The translations under genes and the position numbers were made by a program. Source: Planctomycetota bacterium (GTDB lineage Bacteria > Planctomycetota > GCA-002687715 > DRQF01). From it: a DNA stretch of 48,010 nucleotides. Below, one piece after another: positions 1,583 through 35,618 of this stretch. Under the pieces are notes generated by a model. The model made no database searches and had not been told where the DNA came from. It saw nothing but the letters and a program-made list of their open reading frames with translations. The first letter of the stretch is position 1, and each line of letters opens with the position of its first letter. The stretch lies in the NCBI GenBank assembly GCA_036479435.1, contig JAZGFI010000268.1, positions 1 to 48,010 of the forward strand. Direction: 5' to 3'.

Positions 1583-1885
1583 CTTCGCAGAGATCCTTTG
1601 TTTCGGTTTCCCTTCGTTTCTGCGCAAGAATCACTGGCTTCATGTAGGGGGGAGATGCCTGCCCGTGGAACTTAGATCCCGGGCCGGGCGGCTGTCAAGC
1701 AAATTGACCGGAATCATGGGGAGGTGCGGTGGGTACGAGACGATACCATGATGGGGATTGCTCCGGTCTTTGTGGCTGGTGCCGCCAAGTTGACAATCAT
1801 GCGCTCTGGCGAGTTGGGCTTGGAGTTCAATAGGCCGCGACGTCATCTTGCGGCCAGTGTGCAATTCGGAGCAGGGGGGAAGAAA

Positions 1886-2500
1886 GTGTCTACGACGAAG
1901 CGGCAACAGGCGCTCGAGCGATGGTCGGGGGGTGACTATTTGGGTCGCTTGGCGAGTGACCTTTTGCGACCGGTGGATCATGGGCGACGGACGTTTCCGG
2001 CCTATACTTTTGTGCCGGGGCATCAGCCGCATCCTTGGCGGGATCCTGCGGGGCATTCTTTTGGCCGAGAGAGGGTGGAGGCGGGCGAGGTCGATTCTAA
2101 GAACTGGGGCCAGCATCCGCTTTGGAATGAAGGACTCGACCTTTTTAATCACGGTTACTTTTGGGAAGCGCACGAGGCCTTGGAGGCTCTTTGGCATGGG
2201 CTGGGGAGAGAGGGGCCGGTGGCGGACCTGTTGCGGGCGTTGATCAAGGCTTGTGCGGCGCACTTAAAGGCCTTTGATGATCAGAATATTGGCCCGCGCA
2301 CTTTGGCGCGCCGGGCGGCCGAGGAAATTGAAGGTTTGCTCGATCGAGATGGGGCCTTGGTTGGTGTGGTTTGGTCCCAGCGCTTTGAGACCGAGTTGCG
2401 CCACTTTTTGTCCGAGCACCGAAATTGGTTTGAGACTTTGTTGGCCGAAGGTCCGGTGTTACCGGCATTTCCGTTCTTGCGATTTCACGAGCCGACTTAG
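1886..2500 (+). CDS. DUF309 domain protein
   Basis: GLDLFNHGYFWEAHEALEALW signature, preceded by PAYTFVPGHQPHP. GTG at 1886 after a purine-rich RBS-like tract chosen as start (ORF open from 1724). Confidence 0.8.
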   Translation: MSTTKRQQALERWSGGDYLGRLASDLLRPVDHGRRTFPAYTFVPGHQPHPWRDPAGHSFGRERVEAGEVDSKNWGQHPLWNEGLDLFNHGYFWEAHEALEALWHGLGREGPVADLLRALIKACAAHLKAFDDQNIGPRTLARRAAEEIEGLLDRDGALVGVVWSQRFETELRHFLSEHRNWFETLLAEGPVLPAFPFLRFHEPT

Positions 2501-2533
2501 CACGAGTTTGAATCCAAAAGAGTAGGGGACCTG

Positions 2534-3943
2534 GTGCCGCAGCAGCGCGAACAAGACGCCGAAGAGTATGACGCCGACGCGAAGATTGCGACGGCGCATT
2601 ATGAGTTTGCGGGTTCGGAGTCTGAGGGTTGGACGGTTCTTCGGAACCGGCTTCCTTGGCTGGATCTTGGACCTGGCTATCGCTTTTTGGATGTTGCCAG
2701 TTGCGGCGTTTGCTCCACGGATTTGGCGCGGCGCTTTTTGCCTTTTCCCCTGCCTCAAGTAATTGGTCATGAAGTGGTGGTCAAAGACGACGCCGGTGAA
2801 CGCTATGTGGTGGAGATCAATGCCTCTTGTGTGGCGCGAGGACTGAAGACGTGGTGTTCGTTTTGCGAGCGGGGATTGCCCACTCATTGCCCGCAACGTT
2901 TGACCATCGGGATTGATCGCCTTCCTGGCGGGTTTGGCGCGGGGATCTTAGCTCCTTGTAATGCTCTGTTGCCGGTTCCGATGAGCCTTCCCACCGAAAC
3001 CGCGGTTATGGTCGAACCCTTTGCGGCCGCCCTTCATGCGGTTGAAGGTGTCGCACCGAAGGCTGGCGAAGTGATTGCGGTTTTGGGGCCGCGGCGACTG
3101 GGGATGTTGGCTTTGGCGGCGTTGGCGGCCTGGCGAAAGGACCGCGGCGTTGACTTTAAGATACTGGCCCTTCCGCGCCGCGATGGCTTGAGCGCGTTGG
3201 CCCTGGCGATGGGAGCCGACGAGGTCAAGGTCTTGCGAGGCACTGAGGAAGGCCTGGCCGACGTCGTCATTGACACCACGGGGCATCCCCTGGGGCTTGA
3301 AGCTGCTTTGCTGTTGGCGAAGCGCGAAGTGCATTTGAAATCAACTCACGGTCAAGCGGCGGCCGGGTTGAGTAAGTTGACGGAACTCGTGGTTGATGAG
3401 ATTGGCATTGCGCGGGCGGATCTTGACGGCGAGCTTCCGGGTGGGTTTGCCCTATCTTCGGGTGAAAGGCCTTTGGTGGTGTGGTGCTCCGAGGAGAAGC
3501 CTCCCGAATCCTGGCGGTCGGCGGCGCAGATCTTGCTGGCGGCGACTGCCGCTGAGGCGGCCGCAATACTGAAGGCGAATCCAGCCTTGCATCCCTTGGG
3601 GCGGGCCGATGCGGTGGTCGTGGACACTTCAGCCCAGATCGACGAAGCCCTGCGCTACGATGCGGCGCTTGAATTGAGTTTGTTGCGCCCTCGGGGGTTG
3701 GTCTTGTTGACGGCGAAGTCAAAGCCCAAGGGAGCCTTGGCGCAGGCCGTGGTGGAACGGGGGCTAAGGCTTAGCTCTAGTCGCTGCGGAGATTTCCACT
3801 TGGCCTTGAGGCTGCTCGATTCCAGTGACGAATTTCGCAAGCTCGGTCAGACCTTCGTGACGCATCGATTCAGGCGGGGGGAGTTGGCCGAGGCCTTGCG
3901 CGTTGCGGCGACACCAGCTTGCATCAAAGCGGTGGTGAATTAG
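2534..3943 (+). CDS. Zinc-binding medium-chain dehydrogenase/reductase (alcohol dehydrogenase-like), atypically long
   Basis: CGVCSTD, GHE, structural-Zn cluster C..CSFC..THC, VEPFAAALHAV, degenerate Rossmann loop LGPRRLG; RBS-like GGGG upstream of GTG. Confidence 0.8.
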   Translation: MPQQREQDAEEYDADAKIATAHYEFAGSESEGWTVLRNRLPWLDLGPGYRFLDVASCGVCSTDLARRFLPFPLPQVIGHEVVVKDDAGERYVVEINASCVARGLKTWCSFCERGLPTHCPQRLTIGIDRLPGGFGAGILAPCNALLPVPMSLPTETAVMVEPFAAALHAVEGVAPKAGEVIAVLGPRRLGMLALAALAAWRKDRGVDFKILALPRRDGLSALALAMGADEVKVLRGTEEGLADVVIDTTGHPLGLEAALLLAKREVHLKSTHGQAAAGLSKLTELVVDEIGIARADLDGELPGGFALSSGERPLVVWCSEEKPPESWRSAAQILLAATAAEAAAILKANPALHPLGRADAVVVDTSAQIDEALRYDAALELSLLRPRGLVLLTAKSKPKGALAQAVVERGLRLSSSRCGDFHLALRLLDSSDEFRKLGQTFVTHRFRRGELAEALRVAATPACIKAVVN

Positions 3944-3964
3944 GCCTTCGCTTTGTGCTTGGCT

Positions 3965-4285
3965 TTAACGCGGCCCGGCCCAGCGTAGACGCTCGACGGG
4001 TTCCCCCGCGATGAGGTGGCGATCCACGATCTCATCGACATCGCTGAGCTGGACGCCCTCGTACCAGATGGCTTCGGGATAAACGACGACGGTAACGCCT
4101 CGCTCGCAGGCGTCGAGGCAACCGGCCGCGTTGGCCCGGACCTTGAGGCTGAGTCCGCGCGAGGTAACGGCATCTTTAAAGGCGAGCCGGATTTCGAGGG
4201 AACCCTTGGAGTGGCAGCAGCCCCGAGGGTGGCCGTCCGGGCGATCATTCGTGCAAACGAAAAGATGTTGCTCGAAGGGGGGCAC
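3965..4285 (-). CDS. Thioredoxin-like [2Fe-2S] ferredoxin
   Basis: HLFVCTN..HPRGCC, AGCLDACERG, VVVYPEAIWY: Cys pattern of the Aquifex/Clostridium-type 2Fe-2S ferredoxins. Confidence 0.9.
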   Translation of the reverse strand: MPPFEQHLFVCTNDRPDGHPRGCCHSKGSLEIRLAFKDAVTSRGLSLKVRANAAGCLDACERGVTVVVYPEAIWYEGVQLSDVDEIVDRHLIAGEPVERLRWAGPR

Positions 4286-4290
4286 CCTGG

Positions 4291-4806
4291 CTAGTCTTGC
4301 GCCGATGAAGCTTGCGCGGGCACCGGAATGGTGACGCCGATGACGCGAGCTTCGCAGACCAGCTTTTGATCGACCCAGGCCTGCATGTCAAAGACGGCGC
4401 GTTGGCGACGCAGAGCCTTGGCCTTGACCATCAGCAACAAATCGTCACCCGGCCGCACCGAGCCGCGAAAGCGCACGCTCTCAAGACCACCGAAGCCAAA
4501 GATCACCCCGTCGAGTTTGCCGTACTTTTTGTGGAAGCAGAAAGAGGCCACTTGCGCGCCCGCTTCCACCATCAAAACCCCAGGGAACAGGGGGTTGCCC
4601 GGGAAGTGTCCGCGCGTCCAAAACTCTGCAGGCTCAACGTGGCGCAGAGCGCAGGCTTGCAGCGGCTCATCCCAAAGTTTGACGATTCCACTGATCTGCT
4701 CCATTTCGTGGCGGTGAGGATTGAAGGCACGGATGTCCTCAATCCCGTATTCCACCTGGGTCAAATCAAGGCCATCGATATCGAAAAGGGGCTCGGCTGC
4801 GGGCAT
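4291..4806 (-). CDS. fabZ: 3-hydroxyacyl-ACP dehydratase (FabZ/FabA hotdog family)
   Basis: NPHRHEM, GHFPGNPLFPGVLMVEAGAQ, VRFRGSVRPGD motifs. Confidence 0.85.
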   Translation of the reverse strand: MPAAEPLFDIDGLDLTQVEYGIEDIRAFNPHRHEMEQISGIVKLWDEPLQACALRHVEPAEFWTRGHFPGNPLFPGVLMVEAGAQVASFCFHKKYGKLDGVIFGFGGLESVRFRGSVRPGDDLLLMVKAKALRRQRAVFDMQAWVDQKLVCEARVIGVTIPVPAQASSAQD

Positions 4807-4986
4807 GTTGAGTCTCTGGGATTTGCGCTGAGGGGCTGATCAAATGGGGTTGGAGTGAACGAATGAGCCTACGACGCACCATCCCTGGGTGCAAGAAAAT
4901 CGACGGGAAGCCAAGGCAGAACCGAAGCAGTGCCTGCTTGGAGGTCCTTCAGCGCCAGGGCGGTAGGAACTGATAGGCGATGCGCC

Positions 4987-24858: not shown

Positions 24859-26424
24859 TCAGCTGAGACGACGCAGGCTGACGAGAGTGATGTCGTGCTC
24901 GCCGGGCTCTTCGGCGAGATGAGCTTCGATGCGCTGGTGTAGCTTTTGGGCGACTCTGTCGTCTTTTTTCCCCATGACGCTTTTCGCCGCTTTGTAAAAG
25001 CGCTGTTCGCCGAGGGCCTCTCCAGAGTTCAGATCCAAAGACAAGATGCCACTGGTTCCAATTAATAGGGTATCGCCCTTTTCGAGGATGACATGGGCCT
25101 CTTCGATGCTGGAGTCGAAGACGGGTCCTTTGTCGAGTCCCATCGCGATCCCGGGCGGGTGGGTCATGTTGAGTTGATCCCTTGTCGCCACCAAGCTCAA
25201 CGCGGGTAAGCGATGACCGGCGCTCGCGATCGTCACACTGCCATCCCGAGCGTCGTAGATCGCATACATCGCGGTGACGTACATGCCGCGCCGCAAGTCT
25301 GGCGAAATATTGGCATTGATCTGTTTGAGCACTTCGGCGGGGGCAAGTTTGTGGGCTGGCAATGAACGCAGCGCACTTCTGGCCATGGCCAACACGAGTG
25401 CCGCGGGTATGCCCTGTCCACTCGCGGTCAACAGCAACAAGCCGGTGCGTTGCTGGTCGAGCGGCATGAAGTCAAAAAGATCACTCGAGATTTCGCTCGC
25501 AGGCTGACAGCTCGCGTCCACGATGGCACCCGGAATCTCGGGCATGGTTTTGGGAAACAGGCGAGCTTGAATCTCTTGGATGATCTGTTCTTGGTGTTCT
25601 TTGGAAACGAGTTCTTCTTTGAGCTGAGCCCCCTCCGCGAGCCCGTGCGTCATCTCATTGATGGCGTCCGCAAGGGTGCCGATCTCGTCGCTGGAGGTGG
25701 CGCGGGTGCGGTGCGTAAAATCGCCGCGGGCGACGATTTGAATGTCTTTTACCAAGGTATGAAGCGGACGCGTGATGACGCGTGCGACCCAAAAGCAAGT
25801 GAGGACGCCCAAGATTGTGCCCAGGGTGCTAAACACGATGATTCGGTTCAATAGTGAACTGAGTTCGTCTTCGATGACGGTTTCGGACAAGAAAACTTGG
25901 ACGTTTCCGATCTTCTGCATGCCCCCGCCCGGGCGACTAATGCTTCGCTTGAAGGATCGGTAGCTGAAGGTCCCGTGGGAGCCGACGGACATGCGCCCGC
26001 GGTGAATGGTCGTTTCTCCTACGATCCGTTCCTCGCCGGAATCGGAAATGCTGAGTTCGTCAGCGCCGGTGGCGGTCGCGATCAAAGACAGCTTGCCGTC
26101 GGTACCCGACTCGAAAATTGCAACTTCTCTTACCGGTACATCGCCTTTGAGCATGTCGCTCAAGCGCGCTTGGTTGTCCGCGTTGTGCCAATCTGGCGCG
26201 GCCAAAGAGGAGGCGGCAAAAACGCCCGCCGAGTCAATTGATTCGTTGAGCGCGCGTTTGGTTTGGGAGTAGTCGTTCCAACCCTGTATGCCGACGATCA
26301 GAACCATCACTAGGCTTACGGGTAAAGCGAACTTGAGACCGATGCCCGATCCCTTTTTTCGGGGCCGACCGCCCTTCGAAGATGTGATCGTGCTGCTTCG
26401 CGATCGGGTGGTCGTTCTGGGCAT
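24859..26424 (-). CDS. Membrane sensor with HAMP and SpoIIE/PP2C-like domain (degenerate active site)
   Basis: Two TM helices, HAMP (ITRPL..DEIGTLADAINEM), QEIQARLFP, MYVTAMYAIYD, SAGH.P, GIAMG; metal-binding Asp motifs altered. Confidence 0.85.
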   Translation of the reverse strand: MPRTTTRSRSSTITSSKGGRPRKKGSGIGLKFALPVSLVMVLIVGIQGWNDYSQTKRALNESIDSAGVFAASSLAAPDWHNADNQARLSDMLKGDVPVREVAIFESGTDGKLSLIATATGADELSISDSGEERIVGETTIHRGRMSVGSHGTFSYRSFKRSISRPGGGMQKIGNVQVFLSETVIEDELSSLLNRIIVFSTLGTILGVLTCFWVARVITRPLHTLVKDIQIVARGDFTHRTRATSSDEIGTLADAINEMTHGLAEGAQLKEELVSKEHQEQIIQEIQARLFPKTMPEIPGAIVDASCQPASEISSDLFDFMPLDQQRTGLLLLTASGQGIPAALVLAMARSALRSLPAHKLAPAEVLKQINANISPDLRRGMYVTAMYAIYDARDGSVTIASAGHRLPALSLVATRDQLNMTHPPGIAMGLDKGPVFDSSIEEAHVILEKGDTLLIGTSGILSLDLNSGEALGEQRFYKAAKSVMGKKDDRVAQKLHQRIEAHLAEEPGEHDITLVSLRRLS

Positions 26425-26432
26425 GAGTTCCT

Positions 26433-26888
26433 CTATTTGGCCAGGTACTGAACCAAGATCGAAAGGGGCAGCGCAATCAATCCTGCCGCCACATCATCAT
26501 AGACCACGCCGCGTCCGCCCGGCAACTGCTCGAGCTTTCGAACCGGGCCCGGTTTGGTCATGTCGAAGAGCCGAAAGAAAAAAAATGCGGCCAAAAGGCC
26601 CACCCAGCCGGGGTTTTCAAAGCGGAGGCAAGCGATCCAAATCCCTGCTCCTTCGTCCAGGACGAATTTTTGAGGATCTTTGAGGCCGCTCGACGAGATC
26701 ATGCGATCGGCGAGGCCGGGTCCAAATAGAGTAGCGGCGACCGCCAGAGCTAGGGTGGTCGGGGCGTACCAGGGATCGGGCAAAAAAGCGATGACCATAA
26801 GGGCCACGAAGGTGCCGCAAGTGCCGGGCATGATCGGTGAGAGGCCAGAGCCGAATAGGGTTCCTAAGACGGTGGAAAGCTTGGCCAC
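26433..26888 (-). CDS. pgpA: Phosphatidylglycerophosphatase A
   Basis: GSGLSPIMPGTCGT, KDPQKFVLDE, FRLFDMTKP, GGRGVVYDD; GTG overlapping the pgsA stop. Confidence 0.92.
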   Translation of the reverse strand: MAKLSTVLGTLFGSGLSPIMPGTCGTFVALMVIAFLPDPWYAPTTLALAVAATLFGPGLADRMISSSGLKDPQKFVLDEGAGIWIACLRFENPGWVGLLAAFFFFRLFDMTKPGPVRKLEQLPGGRGVVYDDVAAGLIALPLSILVQYLAK

Positions 26889-27493
26889 TAGATGTCCTGA
26901 GCGCTGAAGCTCTTGGACGCTTGCGCCACGTACAGGGCGCCTGAATAGAGGGTGAGGCCCACCGTGGCCCAAATACAGATGTGAGTGCAGATGTTGACCC
27001 AGGATGGGATGTCGGGCGCAAACGCCACCACGCCAAAGAGAAAGCCGACCAAGATACTCTGGACGACCATCTTGATCTTACCCGGCATCTCCGCCCCGAA
27101 TTCGATTCCCTTGCTCTCCATATAGCCTCGAATTCCCGTCACCAAGAATTCGCGGAAGAGCACTAAGGCAACCATCCATGGGTGAAGGTAGTAGGTCGTT
27201 TCTGCAAATCCCAAAAACAAGACGAGACTACCGCAGACAATAATCTTGTCGACGAAGGGGTCGGCGATGCGGCCAAATGCCGTCACGGTGTTGTCGCGGC
27301 GAGCGATGTAGCCGTCTAACGCGTCCGTTACCGTCGCGAGGGTGAAGAAGCCGAGGCCAATCCAGGCGGCGAGAGTGCGGTGGTTGTCTAGGCAGCTGCC
27401 CTCGGCGATCAACACTAAGATTAGCGAGGAAACGAAAGCAATGACGAGTCGGCCCAGGGTCACGCGATTGGCAAGATTGAAAGACGGTAGCAT
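26888..27493 (-). CDS. pgsA: CDP-diacylglycerol--glycerol-3-phosphate 3-phosphatidyltransferase
   Basis: NLANRVTLGR, TDALDGYIARR..VTAFGRIADPFVDK, REFLVTGIR, GKIKM. Confidence 0.93.
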   Translation of the reverse strand: MLPSFNLANRVTLGRLVIAFVSSLILVLIAEGSCLDNHRTLAAWIGLGFFTLATVTDALDGYIARRDNTVTAFGRIADPFVDKIIVCGSLVLFLGFAETTYYLHPWMVALVLFREFLVTGIRGYMESKGIEFGAEMPGKIKMVVQSILVGFLFGVVAFAPDIPSWVNICTHICIWATVGLTLYSGALYVAQASKSFSAQDI

Positions 27494-27511: not shown

Positions 27512-28828
27512 TTAGATGATGGTAGCTTCAAGGTCGTAGGCGGATGTTTCGGTGACGCGGGCTTGGACGAGCTCTCCCGGCGCGACGGCACGACCAGTAA
27601 GGTGTACGGAACCGTCAATCTCGGGTGCATCTGCAAAAGAGCGGCCGCGAGCTTTTCCGTCGTCGATTCCGGGGTCTTCGACCAAGATTTCCAAGTCGCG
27701 GCCCAAAAAGCGTGCGTTGTTTTCCTCGGCGATTCCGCGCTGCAAGGTCATGAGGCGATCGAGGCGTTCTTGCTTTAATTCCTCCGGCACGGCGTCTTCA
27801 AGATCGAAGGCAGGACTACCTGGCTCGGGTGAGTAGGGGAACGCGCCTAGGCGATCGATGCGGTGCCTATCGACGAAACGCATGAGATGCTCGAAGTCGG
27901 CATCGGTCTCGCCGGGGAAGCCGACAATGAAGGTCGTTCGAATGACCAGGTCTGGCGCCCGGCTGCGGAGCTTCAGCAGCAAGTCTTCGACCTGTTTCTC
28001 GCTGCTCTGACGGCGCATGCGTTCAAGGACGCGGCCCGAACTGTGTTGTAGGGGCACATCGAGGTAGGGCAGGACCTTGTTGTCGGCGGCCAAGATTTCG
28101 ATCAAGTCGTCATCCACTTCTGTGGGATAGGCGTAAAGCAAACGCGTCCAATGCAGGCCATCCGTTTCTGAGACGGATTGCATCAATTCGGCGATGCGGC
28201 GCTTCCCGTAGAGGTCGATGCCATACTGCGTCGAGTCTTGAGCTACGACGTTGATTTCTTTCGCCCCAACTTGGACCAGCCGCCGCGCTTTGTCCAAGAC
28301 GTCGTCAAAAGCCAGGCTTCGCATTCGGCCGCGGATACTCGGGATGACGCAGAAGGTGCAGTTGTGATTGCAGCCCTCCGAAATCTTGAGATAGGCGAAG
28401 TGCGCCGGGGTGAGGCGCGCTTGCACATAGTTGCCGGGGCGGACGAAACCGGTCTTTGACTTGTTGACGTCCGGAATGATCTCGTCGATCATCTCGGGAA
28501 GACGAGCGTAGTCTTTGAAGTCGATGAGGCGGTCGATGTCGGGAACGGCGGCGTGGATTTCTTTGGCGTAGTTGCCGACCATGCATCCCGTTACAAAGAC
28601 GGCTTTTAAGCCGTCAGCTTTTAGTGCGCAGGCACTGCGGATGGCATTGAGTGATTCTTCGCGGGCTGAACCCAGAAACCCGCAAGTGTTCACCACGACC
28701 AAGTCCGCGTCGGCGGGGTCCACGACAACTTCGATGCCGTGCGAAAGGAAATCGGAGACGATCCCCTCGGAGTCCACTAAGTTCTTGGGGCAACCCAAGC
28801 TAATCATCGAAACGCGTCTGTTAGCCAA
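27512..28828 (-). CDS. rimO: Ribosomal protein S12 methylthiotransferase
   Basis: SLGCPKNLVDSE, VNTCGF, AYLKISEGCNHNCTFC radical-SAM motif, DAPEIDG, TRAM-like C-terminus. Confidence 0.96.
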   Translation of the reverse strand: MANRRVSMISLGCPKNLVDSEGIVSDFLSHGIEVVVDPADADLVVVNTCGFLGSAREESLNAIRSACALKADGLKAVFVTGCMVGNYAKEIHAAVPDIDRLIDFKDYARLPEMIDEIIPDVNKSKTGFVRPGNYVQARLTPAHFAYLKISEGCNHNCTFCVIPSIRGRMRSLAFDDVLDKARRLVQVGAKEINVVAQDSTQYGIDLYGKRRIAELMQSVSETDGLHWTRLLYAYPTEVDDDLIEILAADNKVLPYLDVPLQHSSGRVLERMRRQSSEKQVEDLLLKLRSRAPDLVIRTTFIVGFPGETDADFEHLMRFVDRHRIDRLGAFPYSPEPGSPAFDLEDAVPEELKQERLDRLMTLQRGIAEENNARFLGRDLEILVEDPGIDDGKARGRSFADAPEIDGSVHLTGRAVAPGELVQARVTETSAYDLEATII

Positions 28829-28852
28829 AGTGGACTCCTGGGCCTCTCAATC

Positions 28853-31060
28853 TTAGTCTTGCGTGGTCTCCCATTCGGGGAGTGTCACGCGAATTTCTCG
28901 GGTGCCAGTTCCCCGGTAGGGGCCCACCACGCCTTCTGCTTCCATGCGATCAATCGATGCCGCGGCCGTCCGGAAAGTTAGCCCGAGCTGGCGTTGAAGC
29001 AAGGAGACGCTGCAATTGTCGGCCTCCAAGCAGGTTCGAACCGCAATTTCGTAGGTGTCTTCATCCACGACCGACTCTGAAGCCAAGGCACCCGCAGGGG
29101 TCTTGAGGCCGGGGCCCGCGGCGGGCGCCGCGTCTAACCACGCTCCCCAGCCGTCCTCGGCCACCGTGCCGCTAACTGCGGCTTCGGTGGTGGATTCGCC
29201 CGCATTTTGTGCGTCTGCAGGGGCCTTATCAAGCGATTCGCGGTCAAGGCCTAAGGGATTGTCCTCAATTTGCGCTTCGGAGTGGAGAGTCTTGGTGCCT
29301 CCATCAGCCGAAACCTGATCCGGCCTGTCGCCCAAGTAGTCGCCAAAGTCGGACTGAACCCATTCCGAGTTCACGCCCTCGTCACGTTCCTCGGTTTCGG
29401 ATGCACTCTCTTCGAAATCGAAGTCCGAATTAATGGTGTCGAGTTCCTCTTCGTCGTCAAGGTCGACGGCTTCCGCTGCCGACGCCGAGATTTCGATTTC
29501 ATCGAGACCGTCGTCTTCTTCGCCTTCGTCTTCGATCTCCTCGTCTTCTTCTAAACCGAGGACTTCTTCGAACTCGTCATCCTCTTCAAACTCTTCACCA
29601 CCATCTTCGAGCTCGTCCTCCTCCTCCTCCTCCTCTTCTTCCTCGTCGTCGTCAAGCTCCTCGTCTTCGAGGGCTTCGTCTTGCTCCTCGAATTCTTCGT
29701 CGTCCTCTTCGAGGACTTTGTCTGCTTCGAGTTCTTCGAGTTCTTCGAGTTCTTCGAGTTCTTCGAGTTCTTCGAGTTCTTCGGCGTCCTCAAGGGCGTC
29801 CACCGACGGCGCCGCCTCCTGCGTGGTCTCGGCTAAAGCCGCAGACTCTGACGTGGCTTGGGCATCGGCTACGAAGCTGAAATCGACGTCGGGTGTCTCG
29901 AAGATGTCTTCCATCGAGGCCCCGAAGTCAAATCCTGAGGCTGCTCCGGTTACGACGGGTTCGGCTGCTTTTTCTTGCTCGGCGGCCCGTTCTGCGGCCT
30001 CGGAAAGGCGGCCCAACTCGACAGCATCCGCTGGAAGTTCCCCATAAAACTCGGGGATGTGGTCACGCTCGAGTTCTGCATCTGACTCCTCAAACAAAAA
30101 GTTCGAAAGACCGGAGTCTTCATTCAATGGGGTCGCATGCGGCAGTTCTTCCGCAACCCGCTGGATGGCGATTTCGGCGGTGTCGACGTCGCTGATCGCA
30201 GCTTCTGGCTCGACCTTCGGAGTGGGGGCAACGACGACCTCTTCGGATTCGGCCTTGGCTGCAGAGTCAGCAGCAGCATCAGGGGAGGAGGAGGAGACCG
30301 GGGTCACGGGGCGAATGTCGTCCGCGATATCGTCGTCCATATCCAGGTCAAGGTCGGGAAAGCTATCACGCCCCTCAATGTCTCTTTCGTCGACAACCTG
30401 CTTCAAGTCGTAACTAGTCAGTGGTGCGGTCCGATTCGACTTGGCGGGGGCTTCAGTGACCGCGCTCTGATGGAATACGGGAGTTTCGGCTTGGCTGTCG
30501 CCCGGCGAGCCCATTCCCAGTGCAAAGGCCTGTTCGGCCGATCCCGACCCGAGCCAGCTTTTCATTCGGGCAAAGAAGAACCAGTCGCGCGCCATGAAAA
30601 ACCCGAAGATCACCAGGACAATGGCGACGAGGACGGCCAAGGGGTGTGGGAGCACGGCAAAAGCCTGAGCGATGTTGGCCCCAAAGCGGCCTCCCCAAGT
30701 CTCTGCGCCACGACTCATCACGGCGAACAAAGATGAGAGGCTCAAAAGCAACAAACACAAACCGACCGCGCGGCGAGGCCCGTGGTCGAGATGTTTGCCA
30801 ATCCAGCGCAGAATGCTCAGCTGCATGAGACCCGAGAACAACAAAATGGCCGAGACCAATCCTAATGACCGCACGGGTAGCGCGGTCAGAAAGTCCAAGA
30901 ATCCGGCCGAAGGTCGAAAGAAGACCTCGCCGCCGTCTTGCACTTGCCGGAGAATTAGGGCGACCGTCCAAGCCAGCAGCAAGCCAAAAACAACAACGGG
31001 CCAGTGGGCGATCAGACCCTCTGCTTCGGGCTGCTTCTTCGATTCTGATTTTCGACTCAT
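28853..31060 (-). CDS. Motor-less FtsK-like protein: N-terminal TM domain, long acidic linker, C-terminal FtsK gamma domain
   Basis: About four hydrophobic segments in the first 165 aa; about 500 aa D/E-rich region; C-terminus SVSLLQRQLGL..AA..IDRMEAEGVVGPYRG..REI aligns with the gamma domain of the adjacent FtsK; no Walker motifs; RBS AGGAGGAG. Confidence 0.85.
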   Translation of the reverse strand: MSRKSESKKQPEAEGLIAHWPVVVFGLLLAWTVALILRQVQDGGEVFFRPSAGFLDFLTALPVRSLGLVSAILLFSGLMQLSILRWIGKHLDHGPRRAVGLCLLLLSLSSLFAVMSRGAETWGGRFGANIAQAFAVLPHPLAVLVAIVLVIFGFFMARDWFFFARMKSWLGSGSAEQAFALGMGSPGDSQAETPVFHQSAVTEAPAKSNRTAPLTSYDLKQVVDERDIEGRDSFPDLDLDMDDDIADDIRPVTPVSSSSPDAAADSAAKAESEEVVVAPTPKVEPEAAISDVDTAEIAIQRVAEELPHATPLNEDSGLSNFLFEESDAELERDHIPEFYGELPADAVELGRLSEAAERAAEQEKAAEPVVTGAASGFDFGASMEDIFETPDVDFSFVADAQATSESAALAETTQEAAPSVDALEDAEELEELEELEELEELEELEADKVLEEDDEEFEEQDEALEDEELDDDEEEEEEEEEDELEDGGEEFEEDDEFEEVLGLEEDEEIEDEGEEDDGLDEIEISASAAEAVDLDDEEELDTINSDFDFEESASETEERDEGVNSEWVQSDFGDYLGDRPDQVSADGGTKTLHSEAQIEDNPLGLDRESLDKAPADAQNAGESTTEAAVSGTVAEDGWGAWLDAAPAAGPGLKTPAGALASESVVDEDTYEIAVRTCLEADNCSVSLLQRQLGLTFRTAAASIDRMEAEGVVGPYRGTGTREIRVTLPEWETTQD
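29725..29783. repeat. 9-bp tandem repeat (CTTCGAGTT) x6.5 encoding (EEL)6
   Basis: Six perfect copies 29725-29778 plus CTTCG. Confidence 0.95.
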
Positions 31061-31131
31061 GGCGTCTCCTCCTGATTCGACGCTGACCTATTGCATTGCA
31101 CTTTCGCCGCTTGGCGGCTCTAGCGTGTCCG

Positions 31132-33843
31132 CTAAGAGGCTTCCTCTTGTTGTTCCCAATCCTCGAGAGTCATGGTGACCTCACGAGCTTTGCTCCCCTT
31201 GAAGGAGCCGACGATGCCGTCTTCCGCCATGAAATCGACGAGACGAGCGGCACGGGTGTATCCGATTTCCAGTTTTCGTTGCAGCATCGACACTGAGCCC
31301 CGCTGGCTTTGCAAGACCGCGCGAATGGCGTCTTGGTACAGCGGGTCGCGGTCTTTTCCGCTTGCTTTCGCGTTGCTCTCAGTTGAGCTTGAGACTTGCG
31401 TGAGCACAGGGCTGTAGGCCGGCTTGGCGACGTTTTTGATGTGATTGACGATGTCGCGAATTTCCTCGTCGGTAACGAGGGCGGCTTGGCAGCGCACTGG
31501 TGAACTCGACCGCGCGTCGGTCATGAGCATGTCACCCCGGCCCAACAAACGCTCCGCTCCTTTTTGATCGAGAATCGTGCGCGAGTCGATCGCACTCGAA
31601 ACTCGAAACGAAATCCGCGAAGGCATGTTGGACTTGATCAAGCCGGTGATGACGTCGACGCTCGGACGTTGGGTGGCCAAAACGACGTGGATGCCCACGG
31701 CACGCGATTTTTGCGCCAACCGGCAGATGCTGTTTTCGACTTCCTTGGCGGAAGTCATCATCAAATCGGCGAGCTCGTCAACGACTAAGACGATGTAGGG
31801 CAAAGAAAGCTCTTTGCCCACGAGTTCTTCTTCGCTGTAGTGTTCGAGCAAGCGCTCGCGCACCGTTTCTTCGCCGAGCTTGTTGTAGCCCTTGATGTTG
31901 CGCGCACTCACCGCCGCAAGCAGCTCGTATCGTTCGTCCATCGCGTTGACGGCCCACTCCAAAATCTTGGGAGCCTTCTTCATGTCGGTGACGACCGGAG
32001 TCATGAGGTGGGGCAAGTTTCGAAAGGACTGCAGCTCGACCATCTTGGGGTCGATGAGAATTAGCCGAACTTCTTCGGGATACTTCGTCAGCAGCAATGA
32101 GATAATGATGGAGTTTAAGCACACCGACTTTCCCGAGCCAGTTTGACCTGCAACGAGCAAGTGAGGCAATTCGGTAAGGTCGACGATGAGCGATTTTCCA
32201 GAGGCATCTTTGCCCAAAAGCAAGGGGATGGCGAAGTGCTTTTTTTGCAACTGGTCCGACATCGCGAGTTCGCGCAAGGACACTCGCTCTTGGACATCGT
32301 TAGGCACTTCGATCCCGACGGTTGCCTTGCCGGGAATGGGAGCGACAATGCGAATCGTCCTGGCCTTCAGTGCCATGGAGATGTCGTCGCCCAACGAGGT
32401 GATTCGGCTTACCTTCGTGCCCGCCGCCAATGACATCTCATAGACGGTAATCGTTGGGCCTCGGGTTATCTCAACGACTTTGGCTTCGATCTTAAAGGTG
32501 CGAAGGGCGTCTTCTAAAGTGCGTGCCTTGCGCGCGATTTCAGCGTCGCGCTCGTCGTCGTCAGGTGCGTCGGATTCGCCCAGCAGCGTTAGAGGCGGTA
32601 GAGGATAGGGCTCTTTGCCAATAAGGTGCTTTTCGCGCGAAAAGGAGATGATCTCGATTTGGTCATCGGACGCCGCCTTACGCCGGGCTCTGATGATCGG
32701 TGGGGCAGATGGTTCTACCTCGTCTTCGTCAACCTCTTCTTCTAGCTCTTCGTCCTCGTCGAGGTCGCCCCAATCCTCTTCCTCCTCCTCGTCCTCCTCC
32801 TCAGCTTCCTCCGACTCTTCTTCTTCTTCTTCTTCTTCGTCGGCAGCGCCGAGGATCGGGATTTCTTCTTCGTCTATTTCAAGATTGCCCAACAGACGAT
32901 CGATTTCTGCGTCTTCGTCCCATTCTTCCTCTTCTTCTTCGGTGTCTTCATCGAGCTCCGCAGTGGCTTCGCCGCTAAGGGCCTCAAGCGCCTCGGCGGC
33001 CGAAGCTCCACGTAGTCGTCGGGGTTTGATATCAACATCTGCTGGTGCCAAGCCTGCGGTACTTGCGCCCGCGAGGGCTACGCCTACTCCGTCGGCCGCG
33101 GCCGAAAGAGGGGGCCGCCGCAGCCGGGCGACCAAGGCGTTGCCGCTGTTCCAGATTTCCAGTCCGAGATCGCGAAACAGAGTATCGGTGGTGATGACCG
33201 CACTGGCGATTAACAACAAGGTGAGAATTAAGGTTGAGCCTAAACCGCCAAACCACACGAGCATGCGTGCGGCTCCCCAGTCTCCGAGGACTCCGCCCAA
33301 AGGGTAGGCGCTACGCGCATAGCCGTCGCTTGGAGCTATCGCTTGCAAGGTGACGGCTAAGGTCGCAGCGCACAACACCGAACCCAAAATTTTGATCGCA
33401 AGATTCTCAAGAGGCCGCCGCGTCAAAAACGCGTAACCGAGGTACATCAAAAAGAACGACAAGGCGAAGGCGCCTGCGCCGAAAGTCGCGAGCAACTGGT
33501 CGGCCACATAGAATCCGACCTTGCCGCCAAGATTGGCGAAGGGGCTCAGGTGTGACGCGTCGCTCAAGCCGTCATAGGAGACAAAAGACAGCGATAGATA
33601 AAGAGCTGCGCCAAAGAATGCGCAAGCCGCAAACAGACGCCGGTTGGCATCGGAGCGTTCTTTGCTCTCGTCAGGATCCAGTTGATCCACCGTCATTCCC
33701 TCCGGGCCCTCCACAAGGTGTGGTTTGGGCTTTGACCGCCTTCGAGATGGTGAATCTCGTAAGGCCAGCTCGTTCTCCAAAACCCTTCGTCCAACCGCCG
33801 AAGTTCGCAGGGTTTCGTGTTTTTTGACGACCCGTCTTTTCAT
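31132..33843 (-). CDS. ftsK: DNA translocase FtsK
   Basis: TM domain with NLGGKVG, acidic linker, IRIVAPIPGK.TVGIEVPN, PHLLVAGQTGSGKS, LIDPKMVEL, VVDELADLM, LATQRPSVDV, gamma SVSMLQRKLEIGYTRAARL. ATG 33843 with GGGGAGG RBS preferred over ORF start 34134, which lies inside dut. Confidence 0.96.
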   Translation of the reverse strand: MKRRVVKKHETLRTSAVGRRVLENELALRDSPSRRRSKPKPHLVEGPEGMTVDQLDPDESKERSDANRRLFAACAFFGAALYLSLSFVSYDGLSDASHLSPFANLGGKVGFYVADQLLATFGAGAFALSFFLMYLGYAFLTRRPLENLAIKILGSVLCAATLAVTLQAIAPSDGYARSAYPLGGVLGDWGAARMLVWFGGLGSTLILTLLLIASAVITTDTLFRDLGLEIWNSGNALVARLRRPPLSAAADGVGVALAGASTAGLAPADVDIKPRRLRGASAAEALEALSGEATAELDEDTEEEEEEWDEDAEIDRLLGNLEIDEEEIPILGAADEEEEEEEESEEAEEEDEEEEEDWGDLDEDEELEEEVDEDEVEPSAPPIIRARRKAASDDQIEIISFSREKHLIGKEPYPLPPLTLLGESDAPDDDERDAEIARKARTLEDALRTFKIEAKVVEITRGPTITVYEMSLAAGTKVSRITSLGDDISMALKARTIRIVAPIPGKATVGIEVPNDVQERVSLRELAMSDQLQKKHFAIPLLLGKDASGKSLIVDLTELPHLLVAGQTGSGKSVCLNSIIISLLLTKYPEEVRLILIDPKMVELQSFRNLPHLMTPVVTDMKKAPKILEWAVNAMDERYELLAAVSARNIKGYNKLGEETVRERLLEHYSEEELVGKELSLPYIVLVVDELADLMMTSAKEVENSICRLAQKSRAVGIHVVLATQRPSVDVITGLIKSNMPSRISFRVSSAIDSRTILDQKGAERLLGRGDMLMTDARSSSPVRCQAALVTDEEIRDIVNHIKNVAKPAYSPVLTQVSSSTESNAKASGKDRDPLYQDAIRAVLQSQRGSVSMLQRKLEIGYTRAARLVDFMAEDGIVGSFKGSKAREVTMTLEDWEQQEEAS

Positions 33844-33922
33844 CCCTCCCCAGGAACTCAAAGTCGAGCTGCTCTCAAAGTTTTCCTTCGAGGGCGTGTC
33901 TTGTTGTGTTTGCGCCTGGCTC

Positions 33923-34435
33923 TCAGCCCGGCGCTTTGTGTTGAGCCTCTGCTTCGCTTTGTTGAGCCTCTGCTTCGTTAAGGCCCGTGTGTCCAAATCC
34001 TCCGGCTCCCCGAAGGGTGTCGTCGAGGCTTTTTGTCTCGCATAACTCAACATGACTGACGGGGGCCACGACGAGTTGCGCGATGCGCATGCCGCGTTCG
34101 ACGATGAAGGGTTCTGACGACAAGATTGTCGCAATCACCCCAATCTCACCCCGGTAGTCCGAATCAATAGTACCCGGAGCGTTGACCAAAGTCAGCCCAT
34201 GTTTTAGCGCTAATCCACTCCTGGCCCGCACTTGGGCTTCGTAACCCGCCGGCAAGGCCAGGGATATTCCGGTCGGAATGAGGCTAATCTTGCCGGGCTC
34301 TAGGCGAATGGGATCTCGATTGCAGGCACAAAGGTCTAGCCCACTCGACCCCGCCGTGGCGTAGGCCGGATAGGGAAGCCCCTTGGCATCCTCGCTGCGT
34401 CGCAGCTGAATCTTCATCCTCACTGCTGAACTCAT
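33923..34435 (-). CDS. dut: dUTP diphosphatase
   Basis: SSGLDL, RSGLA, PGTIDSDYRGEI, RIAQL, RGAGGFGHTG; start 34435 overlaps the coaB stop. Confidence 0.95.
   Translation of the reverse strand: MSSAVRMKIQLRRSEDAKGLPYPAYATAGSSGLDLCACNRDPIRLEPGKISLIPTGISLALPAGYEAQVRARSGLALKHGLTLVNAPGTIDSDYRGEIGVIATILSSEPFIVERGMRIAQLVVAPVSHVELCETKSLDDTLRGAGGFGHTGLNEAEAQQSEAEAQHKAPG
33939..33977. repeat. 18-bp direct repeat (period 21) in the dut 3' tail
   Basis: TGTTGAGCCTCTGCTTCG at 33939-33956 and 33960-33977 (EAEAQ twice). Confidence 0.9.
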
Positions 34436-35058
34436 TTCGCAGCTCCCCAAAAATCCTCAGCTCGCTTGACGAGTATTTCGCCCAATTCTCGCTTATCGCA
34501 CTCCATCACCGGCTCCAGACCATCTTTGGTCAAAAAGCGAAAGCGACTTTTGCCCCTCGCGAAATTCTCCGGTTGGTTGACGACAATCAGATCCAAGTTC
34601 TTTTTCTCAAGCTTCCCCCGCGCGTATTCCACCGCGCGATCAACTTCCAAGGCAAATCCGATCAGGACGCGCCGGCCCTTTTCATTGCCCACCGTGGCGA
34701 GGATGTCCGGGTTGCGGACCAAGTCCAGCGCCCAGTTCCCCTCGGCCTTTTTGACCTTTCCCTCACGTCGCATCGCCGGGCGATAATCGCAGACCGCGGC
34801 CGTCATGATGAGAGCATCATGGGACTCGAAAAGCGCCGACACGGTTGCCAGCATATCGCGGGCGGACACGACTTGGTGCGTATTCAAGCCTATAGGAGGG
34901 GACAGTGCTACCGGACCAGAGACCAAGTTGACCTCGTGCCCCGCATCGTGAGCGGCTTCTGCGATGGCATATCCGGTCCTTCCGGAGGACATGTTGGACA
35001 AAAATCGAACCTCGTCGATCATTTCGCGCGTGGGACCGGCGGTGACGAGGATCTTCAT
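34432..35058 (-). CDS. coaB: Phosphopantothenate--cysteine ligase (stand-alone CoaB)
   Basis: ILVTAGPTRE.ID.VRFLSN.SSG, AAVCDY, NPDIL, GFALE. Confidence 0.93.
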   Translation of the reverse strand: MKILVTAGPTREMIDEVRFLSNMSSGRTGYAIAEAAHDAGHEVNLVSGPVALSPPIGLNTHQVVSARDMLATVSALFESHDALIMTAAVCDYRPAMRREGKVKKAEGNWALDLVRNPDILATVGNEKGRRVLIGFALEVDRAVEYARGKLEKKNLDLIVVNQPENFARGKSRFRFLTKDGLEPVMECDKRELGEILVKRAEDFWGAAK

Positions 35059-35060
35059 CC

Positions 35061-35618
35061 TTAGGCCTTTTTTGGGCGACTCCAGGCCGCCTCAATTCGA
35101 TCGAGGATGAAACTGACTTCAGCCAGTCGGCCCGGTCCCGTCTCGCCGCAGGCAAGATCGCCGTCGGCCGGCGAAATGAGCTCCCAGGCCCGATTCTGAA
35201 GCAATTGCGTGTTGGCTTGAACGGCCTCATTGGCCCACATTCGCCAATTCATGGCCGGGGCAAAAAGTCGCGGGCCATCGAAGGTCATCGCGGTGGTTGT
35301 GAGGATGTTGTCAGCAATTCCGTTGGCGATCTTGCCGATCGTGCCCGCCGTAGCCGGGGCCAAGACCATCAAATCGGCATCTTGAGCGAGCCGGATGTGA
35401 TCGTGGTCGAGATCGCTCACCGTCTCCCACATTTGGTGGTAGACCTTTGAGAGCGTCATGGCTTGGAAGGCGAGGGGGCTGATGAGCTGCTTGGCATTCG
35501 GAGACATCAGCACCGACACTTTGTGCCCGCCTTTGCGGAGTTCGGAGCCAATATCCAAAGCCCGGTGCAGCGCGATGGAGGCACTCACGCCGAGGATGAT
35601 GTGCTTAGAAGAGCTCAT
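35061..35618 (-). CDS. coaC: Phosphopantothenoylcysteine decarboxylase (stand-alone CoaC, HFCD flavoprotein)
   Basis: HIRLA, APATA, ANGIADN, PAMN..MW, LACGETGPGRL. Confidence 0.92.
   Translation of the reverse strand: MSSSKHIILGVSASIALHRALDIGSELRKGGHKVSVLMSPNAKQLISPLAFQAMTLSKVYHQMWETVSDLDHDHIRLAQDADLMVLAPATAGTIGKIANGIADNILTTTAMTFDGPRLFAPAMNWRMWANEAVQANTQLLQNRAWELISPADGDLACGETGPGRLAEVSFILDRIEAAWSRPKKA

Follow-up and report, generated by a model that had tools for sequence, protein, structure and literature searches.

We have identified a conserved, motor-less paralogue of the DNA translocase FtsK, encoded directly behind a complete ftsK gene in a 48,010-nucleotide stretch of a Planctomycetota genome (contig JAZGFI010000268.1 of assembly GCA_036479435.1; the whole stretch is called the window here). 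The gene, which we refer to as X, lies on the minus strand at 28853..31060 and encodes 735 amino acids (aa). Of FtsK it retains precisely the two ends that are not motor, and it stands in tandem with ftsK, which makes it an obvious candidate partner in the poorly understood division machine of bacteria that lack FtsZ. Its domains and position suggest that X most probably acts together with FtsK at the membrane, and that it is likely to be an unstudied FtsK partner in bacteria dividing without FtsZ. To our fuller account, in which ftsK was duplicated in tandem long ago in a large group of Planctomycetota and the conserved copy X, having lost its motor, serves the FtsK machine as a subunit with accessory or regulatory tasks, we give an about even chance of being correct.

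Planctomycetes divide without FtsZ. An earlier interpretation of the window, made without database searches (hereafter the sequence-only reading), expected that FtsZ would be missing and FtsK kept, and this is what we observe: a search of this genome (92% complete) detected no FtsZ, and in the control search FtsZ turned up in 13 of 14 genomes. According to PMC12283558 and PMC10632474, ftsK alone is essential among the genes of the division and cell wall (dcw) cluster in P. limnophila, and a report cited in PMC12283558 has FtsK organising the divisome of FtsZ-less Chlamydia. X offers a concrete gene for genetic and biochemical study, and a natural experiment in how FtsK membrane and gamma domains act without the pump. 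Full-text searches, with most subscription journals outside their scope, found no paper on a motor-less FtsK paralogue of this kind, and databases name the members of the X family 'hypothetical protein' or 'FtsK/SpoIIIE-like'.

Two FtsK domains without a motor

The ftsK gene upstream of X is complete (31132..33843, minus strand; Pfam FtsK_4TM 69, FtsK_alpha 114, FtsK_SpoIIIE 212 and FtsK_gamma 87 bits; NCBIfam FtsK). Its frame is open over 31132..34134, with the ATG at 33843 as the likely start. The membrane domain, with four transmembrane (TM) helices (4TM), falls at 33181..33627 (residues 170-318, counted in the 1000-aa frame), whereas the winged helix of gamma lies at 31168..31353. X begins after a spacer of 71 bp (31061..31131) and, as the sequence-only reading had noted, carries a ribosome-binding site of its own, AGGAGG at 31068-31073, 7 nt before the ATG at 31060. 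Comparisons below draw on two samples: the loci of 19 relatives from the same order (families f1-f4; the own-order sample) and a phylum sample of 201 genomes.

The C-terminus of X is a bona fide FtsK gamma domain. Located at 28886..29062 (minus strand; residues 667-725), it gives the only Pfam match of X at E<=1, to FtsK_gamma with E 9.3e-16 and 57.7 bits against a cut-off of 30.6, which bears out the domain call of the sequence-only reading. When searched against the PDB with phmmer, it matched the gamma chains of P. aeruginosa and E. coli (E 6e-8 to 1e-3). An AlphaFold2 (AF2) model of the last 139 residues, built from a 14-row alignment, reaches block means of 89-97 in the predicted local distance difference test score (pLDDT) from residue 71 onwards. 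The ten PDB structures that match it best are FtsK gamma domains without exception (template modelling score 0.78-0.91 by target, root-mean-square deviation 1.3-2.0 Å). A C-terminal helix with the tail TLPEWE comes next; the similar tails that had been pointed out for the two proteins, REVTMTLEDWE in FtsK and REIRVTLPEWE in X, are both present in the sequence. Exactly two gamma domains occur in this genome, that of FtsK and that of X.

By profile methods, the N-terminus of X is a divergent, homologous FtsK_4TM domain. The four-helix membrane domain (30566..31018, minus strand; residues ~15-165) contains four hydrophobic segments within residues 15-164, and four helices recur in every orthologue, with a conserved G-G-x-x-G loop (30659-30697, minus strand) preceding TM4. 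The motif pairs that had first suggested a likeness to FtsK are present, and hhalign aligns WGGRFG and LGGVLG with each other. When the N-domains of 18 X proteins were compared with those of 15 FtsKs encoded in the same genomes, hhalign gave 93.5% and E 2.3e-7 over 121 columns, with TM2-TM4 in register, and a local run gave 77% and E 2e-5. Both controls, pgsA (E 0.12) and a reversed alignment of FtsK (E 0.43), came out negative. Across the own-order X N-domains, FtsK_4TM was the only recurring Pfam family (12 of 18, all sub-threshold, best E 0.0012).

A profile of the X N-domain searched against 1.84 billion representative proteins returned 191 matches at E<=1e-3. Among the best 150 of these, strong FtsK_4TM fragments appear from about rank 93 and motor-bearing FtsKs from rank 114; local hidden Markov models (HMMs) found a gamma and no motor in 111 and a motor in 6, and a hand count from Pfam tables gave 110 and 6. 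Within the first 75 matches, 14 distant X-family members exceed the Pfam FtsK_4TM cut-off. Additionally, 28 of 30 feature neighbours of X residues 1-200 in the ESM Atlas belong to the FtsK_4TM set (score 0.91), and the structural neighbours of these residues align over FtsK N-termini. A word-index homology search with residues 1-200 gave no match because of its limited sensitivity, as the later profile search showed.

Between these domains lies the long acidic linker that the sequence-only reading had described (29081..30550, minus strand; residues 171-660). It is of low complexity, 33% of its residues are D or E, and its net charge is -143; the FtsK linker is likewise acidic, with a net charge of -51 over 180 residues. 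About 30 residues before the gamma domain, the linker of X holds a short acidic motif, D-x-W-x-x-W (29132..29155, minus strand; residues 636-643). In the form D-x-W-x-x-W-(D/E) it recurs in 11 of the 14 own-order X proteins that were aligned (the window and loci L023, L026, L029-L032, L035, L040, L042 and L065); it is absent from genus g3 and from genome G016, and none was seen in other families. The W-x-x-W motif is undocked from gamma and disordered in the AF2 model (pLDDT 52-62), and D-x-W-x-x-W may be a docking motif.

No part of the FtsK motor was detected in X. Neither the alpha domain (PF17854) nor the RecA-like beta motor with Walker A and B (PF01580) gave a Pfam match at E<=1, as the sequence-only reading had anticipated, and a tblastn search with FtsK residues 1-925 in six frames of 28700-31140 found no motor remnant (best E 0.81 over 19 aa). 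Lacking the alpha domain, the beta motor and the Walker motifs, X therefore cannot pump DNA.

An old and maintained duplicate

Substitution rates and a gene tree indicate that X is a selected and maintained gene family. We took ratios of nonsynonymous to synonymous substitution (dN/dS) from the two closest pairs with unsaturated dS, distant pairs being saturated and unreliable. For genomes G009 and G018 the ratio was 0.06 in the N-domain, 0.27 in the linker and 0.05 in gamma; for G005 and G001 it was 0.12, 0.14-0.39 and 0.02, respectively. Whole FtsK gave 0.06-0.23 in comparable pairs. Neutral decay, for which the sequence-only reading had proposed this test, is thus not what we find: selection on the membrane and gamma domains is purifying (0.02-0.12).

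In a short gamma tree (64 columns; 32 X and 34 FtsK, row K_G065 being too short for inclusion), 2 changes account for the labels X and FtsK, compared with a mean of 22 after shuffling, and 0 of 500 shuffles were as low. No X pairs with the FtsK of its own genome, and X branches are longer. Thus, the duplication is old and the copy has been maintained. The starred branches of the tree allow a single origin of X, with three X (families f6 and f46) and one divergent FtsK (genome G035) as exceptions on the other side. Tandem duplication followed by motor loss had been proposed for X; its origin as an FtsK duplicate stands, and the gamma tree makes that duplication old, not recent.

Contigs from two other studies support the assembly. 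The stretch 29754-32767, covering the 5' half of X, the spacer and the 3' part of ftsK, is recovered in one piece with 0 differences, and 28600-29754, covering the end of rimO and the 3' half of X, forms a second piece with 0 differences. The independent assemblies break or skip only at an EEL repeat in the X linker (29726-29782, minus strand, with the breaks at 29745-29783) and at a repeat in the ftsK linker (32768-32852), both rich in GAA and GAG. The uncertainty of the X assembly is limited to the copy number of the acidic repeat.

Distribution in Planctomycetota

The sequence-only reading had called for a search for this architecture in relatives, and we found it to be widespread. In the family of the window's organism, the X N-domain was matched in 7 of 8 genomes (E 1e-22 to 5e-50), directly after the ftsK gamma; the eighth, G004 (88% complete), showed no gamma at all. 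An X open reading frame (ORF) or fragment was present at 19/19 own-order loci, always adjoining ftsK, rimO or both. The three genes occur together at 11 of the 19, the other loci being cut by contig ends. Fragments of X in the own order are due to contig ends, to one run of N (G013) and to one ORF without gamma (G008).

These two interrupted copies deserve separate mention. In G008 (L027, 5529-7946) an 805-aa X ORF ends without gamma, and in G013 (L032, 3962-5690) X is split around a run of N. Both genomes are draft metagenome-assembled genomes (MAGs), and the interruptions are probably assembly problems.

In the phylum sample, gamma was found in 195 of 201 genomes and at least two gammas in 54 of 201. 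We re-searched 46 multi-gamma genomes. In 29 of them a second gamma follows 1.4-3.1 kb downstream, with strand and contig unchanged, and in the remainder the gammas are mostly split over contigs. Tandem second gammas occur in families f3, f6, f8, f25, f28, f36, f37, f46, f56 and f67. At 16 tandem-gamma loci the downstream ORF mostly matches the X N-profile, with four N-terminal hydrophobic helices in those inspected. In 29 of 32 loci, no more than 120 bp separate ftsK from X; the median gap is 32 bp, and several pairs overlap. These gaps are approximate because first-start calls were used. Such adjacency, with short or overlapping gaps, extends over at least 13 family-level groups.

The ESM Atlas clusters nearest to one X-family member are named 'hypothetical protein', contain FtsK_gamma in 74-95% of their members and have Planctomycetota as their commonest phylum. 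A related-locus search with the 8 closest alignment rows returned the family's own MAGs only (Planctomycetota or uncultured Planctomycetia).

A different arrangement was seen at one locus of family f17 (L066; G035:C69). There ftsK (1745-4033) is followed by gamma-like matches at ~4236-4385 and 4770-4913, both weak (32 and 28 bits) and in short frames of 144 and 143 aa, and no long X gene is present. This pair of frames may be a different outcome of gamma duplication.

Possible role and competing explanations

The sequence-only reading had offered a membrane-DNA tether, a loading factor and a dominant-negative regulator that co-assembles with FtsK as candidate roles. A role of X in the FtsK machine could proceed as follows. 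X and FtsK would be made from one transcript; no terminator-like site was found in the 71-bp spacer. X would be inserted with both ends in the cytoplasm, a topology that we predict because of the positive-inside rule, given the K-rich N-terminus, the basic TM2-TM3 loop and the basic residues after TM4. The membrane domain may then join, or sit beside, FtsK N-domain oligomers at the site of division or segregation, where X would present its altered gamma on a polyanionic tether of ~490 residues instead of a motor. Since an FtsK N-type domain has been strongly selected and is encoded just after ftsK, X would most simply act in the FtsK membrane assembly. In E. coli, the FtsK N-domain hexamerises alone, at midcell (PMC3870252). 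A complex prediction for the N-domains of FtsK and X, run without controls, returned a score of 0.00, which counts neither for nor against contact. In a bolder version, which we judge unlikely, X would be a core structural part of an FtsZ-independent division and segregation apparatus in a large clade of planctomycetes. Its membrane domain would form mixed rings with the essential FtsK at the site of division, and its tether with the re-purposed gamma would link these rings to a protein such as Xer or some other component of the divisome, not to the DNA guide motif, so that FtsK would be split into a 'pump' and a 'scaffold/adaptor'.

What the X gamma could contact can be judged from its residues, which are numbered here as in E. 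coli on the basis of the peptide 1289-1297 given in PMC5052618 and of HMMER alignments. Planctomycete FtsKs are highly uniform: among 33, Q1288 is kept in 33, R1289 in 30, G1294 in 33, Y1295 in 32, R1297 in 32 and R1300 in 31. The 17 own-order X proteins keep Q1288 in 16 and R1289 in 14, with G1294 in 1 and Y1295 in 0 (F or W instead). Likewise, the 111 motor-less representatives keep Q1288 in 94, R1289 in 104 and G1294 in 15, and positions 1297 and 1300 are mostly occupied by E, D, Q and A. In several other families the X gamma has a basic character (net +2 to +7) and is more FtsK-like, and outside the own order many X keep G-Y and R or K at 1294/1295/1300.

Several observations weigh against the role in the FtsK machine that we propose. 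X is not general in the phylum, with at most one gamma in 147 of the 201 sampled genomes. Five complete single-contig genomes (families f7, f35, f42 and f44) have neither a second gamma nor a match to the X N-profile, and in one complete genome (G053) rimO-pgsA follows ftsK directly, with nothing between. X is therefore no universal requirement of planctomycete division, and the ftsK-rimO-pgsA linkage is older; X has the look of a tandem duplicate inserted there, or else of a gene lost later in lineages without it. The N-domain of the window X scores just 8.3 bits (E 2.3) against Pfam FtsK_4TM, below the PF13491 threshold of 23.1, and its linker is fast-evolving (dN/dS 0.14-0.6). DNA binding by the X gamma is doubtful, as own-order X keep R1297 in 1/17 and R1300 in 2/17, while R1300 occurs in 12 of the 111 representatives and R is not among the five commonest residues at 1297. 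R1300 is among the residues mutated in FtsK blind to KOPS (FtsK orienting polar sequences). Own-family X gammas also have a net charge of -4 to 0, compared with +1 to +4 in their FtsKs. A connection to Xer recombination is weak as well: X is without the XerD-contact residues R1292, G1294 and N1296, and the genome's two XerC/D-like recombinases (L070 and L071, on contigs C87 and C289; 303 and 293 bits, just below the XerD model cut-off) lack the E183/E184 pair, having R-Y and A-L there.

Judged by these residues, the X gamma, at least in the own order, looks re-purposed away from FtsK-type DNA reading. With the recognition-helix arginines lost, it probably does not read the FtsK guide motif, and its more likely ligand is a protein (FtsK itself or a Xer recombinase), or DNA without guide-motif specificity. 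The E183/E184 pair of E. coli XerD binds FtsK gamma, and gamma R1289 makes a key salt bridge to E184 (PMC5052618). We considered the kept Q1288-R1289 as a pointer to XerD binding, which is weakened by the missing glutamates of both local Xer-like proteins. Their absence means that a gamma-Xer interface must differ here, if present, and a link between X and Xer is only a possibility.

One could nevertheless picture X as a stand-alone, membrane-tethered Xer activator, whose gamma switches on XerD at dif without translocation and leaves the guide motif to the gamma of FtsK. In E. coli, XerD is activated by gamma on its own, or by as little as a peptide of 9 residues (FtsK 1289-1297; PMC5052618 and PMC3130261), activators other than FtsK are described (XafT of TLCphi), and both the widely kept Q1288 and R1289 and the two recombinases of this genome would suit such a function. 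We nevertheless find it distinctly unlikely: the partner glutamates and three of the XerD contacts are missing, the Q-R pair stands at a helix end and is possibly kept for structure, and the need for an FtsK-type 4TM domain goes unexplained. Unlikely as well, in our estimate, is that X acts independently of FtsK as a membrane winged-helix protein, either a nucleoid-membrane tether or a DNA-binding regulator, its place beside ftsK being no more than a relic of how it arose by duplication. Winged helices bind DNA generically, as seen among the lower PDB structural matches, and the basic X gammas outside the own order, many with G-Y and R or K at the positions named above, are compatible with DNA binding. 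However, the own-order X gamma is acidic or neutral and without recognition arginines, adjacency across so many family-level groups outlasts what would be expected of a relic, and the membrane domain is selected as strongly as gamma.

A poisoning or titrating regulator would mix into FtsK N-domain hexamers and leave fewer motors per ring, in a dominant-negative manner. Its ingredients are in place, as X has a membrane domain of the same family as that of FtsK and no motor, and the E. coli N-domain hexamerises alone (PMC3870252). However, this is a special case of a subunit of the FtsK machine with no evidence of its own, it does not explain the strong purifying selection on gamma, and we hold it to be very unlikely. 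The three rivals given so far share part of their ground with the role proposed above. That X is a decaying duplicate or an assembly artefact is hardly credible. The repetitive linker, the breaks of independent assemblies in the EEL repeat and the interrupted copies of G008 and G013 could be read in that way, but both end domains show low dN/dS, intact single ORFs of the same architecture occur in dozens of genomes, identical contigs from two other studies span the junctions from the ftsK 3' end through the spacer to the X 5' half and from the X 3' half to rimO, and no motor remnants are present.

Relation to known systems

X can be set beside several known proteins. With FtsK of the E. coli and P. 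aeruginosa type (PF13491 + PF17854 + PF01580 + PF09397), X shares a 4TM domain whose G-G-x-x-G precedes TM4, a variable linker rich in acidic residues and, at the C-terminus, a gamma of the same fold, and it is encoded beside, and descended from, the organism's own ftsK. Unlike FtsK, it is without alpha domain, beta motor and Walker A/B, its recognition helix has lost R1297, R1300 and mostly G1294-Y1295, and in this organism its N-domain falls below the Pfam threshold. Isolated FtsK gamma and XafT resemble X in being small winged-helix or helix-turn-helix (HTH) modules that could act on XerD without a motor, and X keeps the Q1288-R1289 pair. In contrast to them, X has a 4TM anchor and the long polyanionic tether, and the other XerD contacts and the partner glutamates are missing.

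RodZ, like X, combines a membrane anchor with an HTH, and according to the sequence-only reading it often stands between ftsK and rimO-pgsA. It has an N-terminal cytoplasmic HTH (HTH_25 type), a single TM helix and a C-terminal RodZ_C/DUF4115 domain. X shows the opposite order, with four TM helices, a C-terminal winged HTH and domains derived from FtsK, and no RodZ-type Pfam domain was found in it at E<=1. The FtsK paralogues of Firmicutes of the SftA/SpoIIIE type are likewise second FtsK-family proteins, and they share work with the main translocase. They keep the motor, and SftA is without a membrane domain. X is the reverse case of SftA, keeping the membrane domain and losing the motor.

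Gene neighbourhood and further observations

On the minus strand, the genes of the locus run yicC, gmk, rpoZ, coaC, coaB, dut, ftsK, X, rimO, pgsA, pgpA, a HAMP-SpoIIE phosphatase and priA. The conserved downstream neighbour rimO (27512..28828) starts 24 bp after X, and pgsA with pgpA (26433..27493; pgsA 26888-27493, pgpA 26433-26972) ends the cluster.

After pgpA lies a membrane HAMP-SpoIIE (PP2C) phosphatase at 24859-26424. In family f56 (L054 and L055) the locus is without rimO, and there too X-pgpA is followed by a SpoIIE-like ORF. The phosphatase may be part of a conserved extended neighbourhood.

A cysteine before gamma helix 2 of X (residue ~683, in 'NCS') is invariant in the 14 aligned own-order X proteins, where FtsK has glycine or alanine.

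CoaBC is usually one fusion. In the window its functions are divided between two adjacent genes, a flavoprotein (CoaC) gene at 35061-35618 and a DFP (CoaB) gene at 34432-35058, and the loci of relatives are alike. Finally, the strand opposite the GAA/GAG-rich linker repeats carries long, spurious Ser-rich ORFs at 29433-30047 and 32615-33307.

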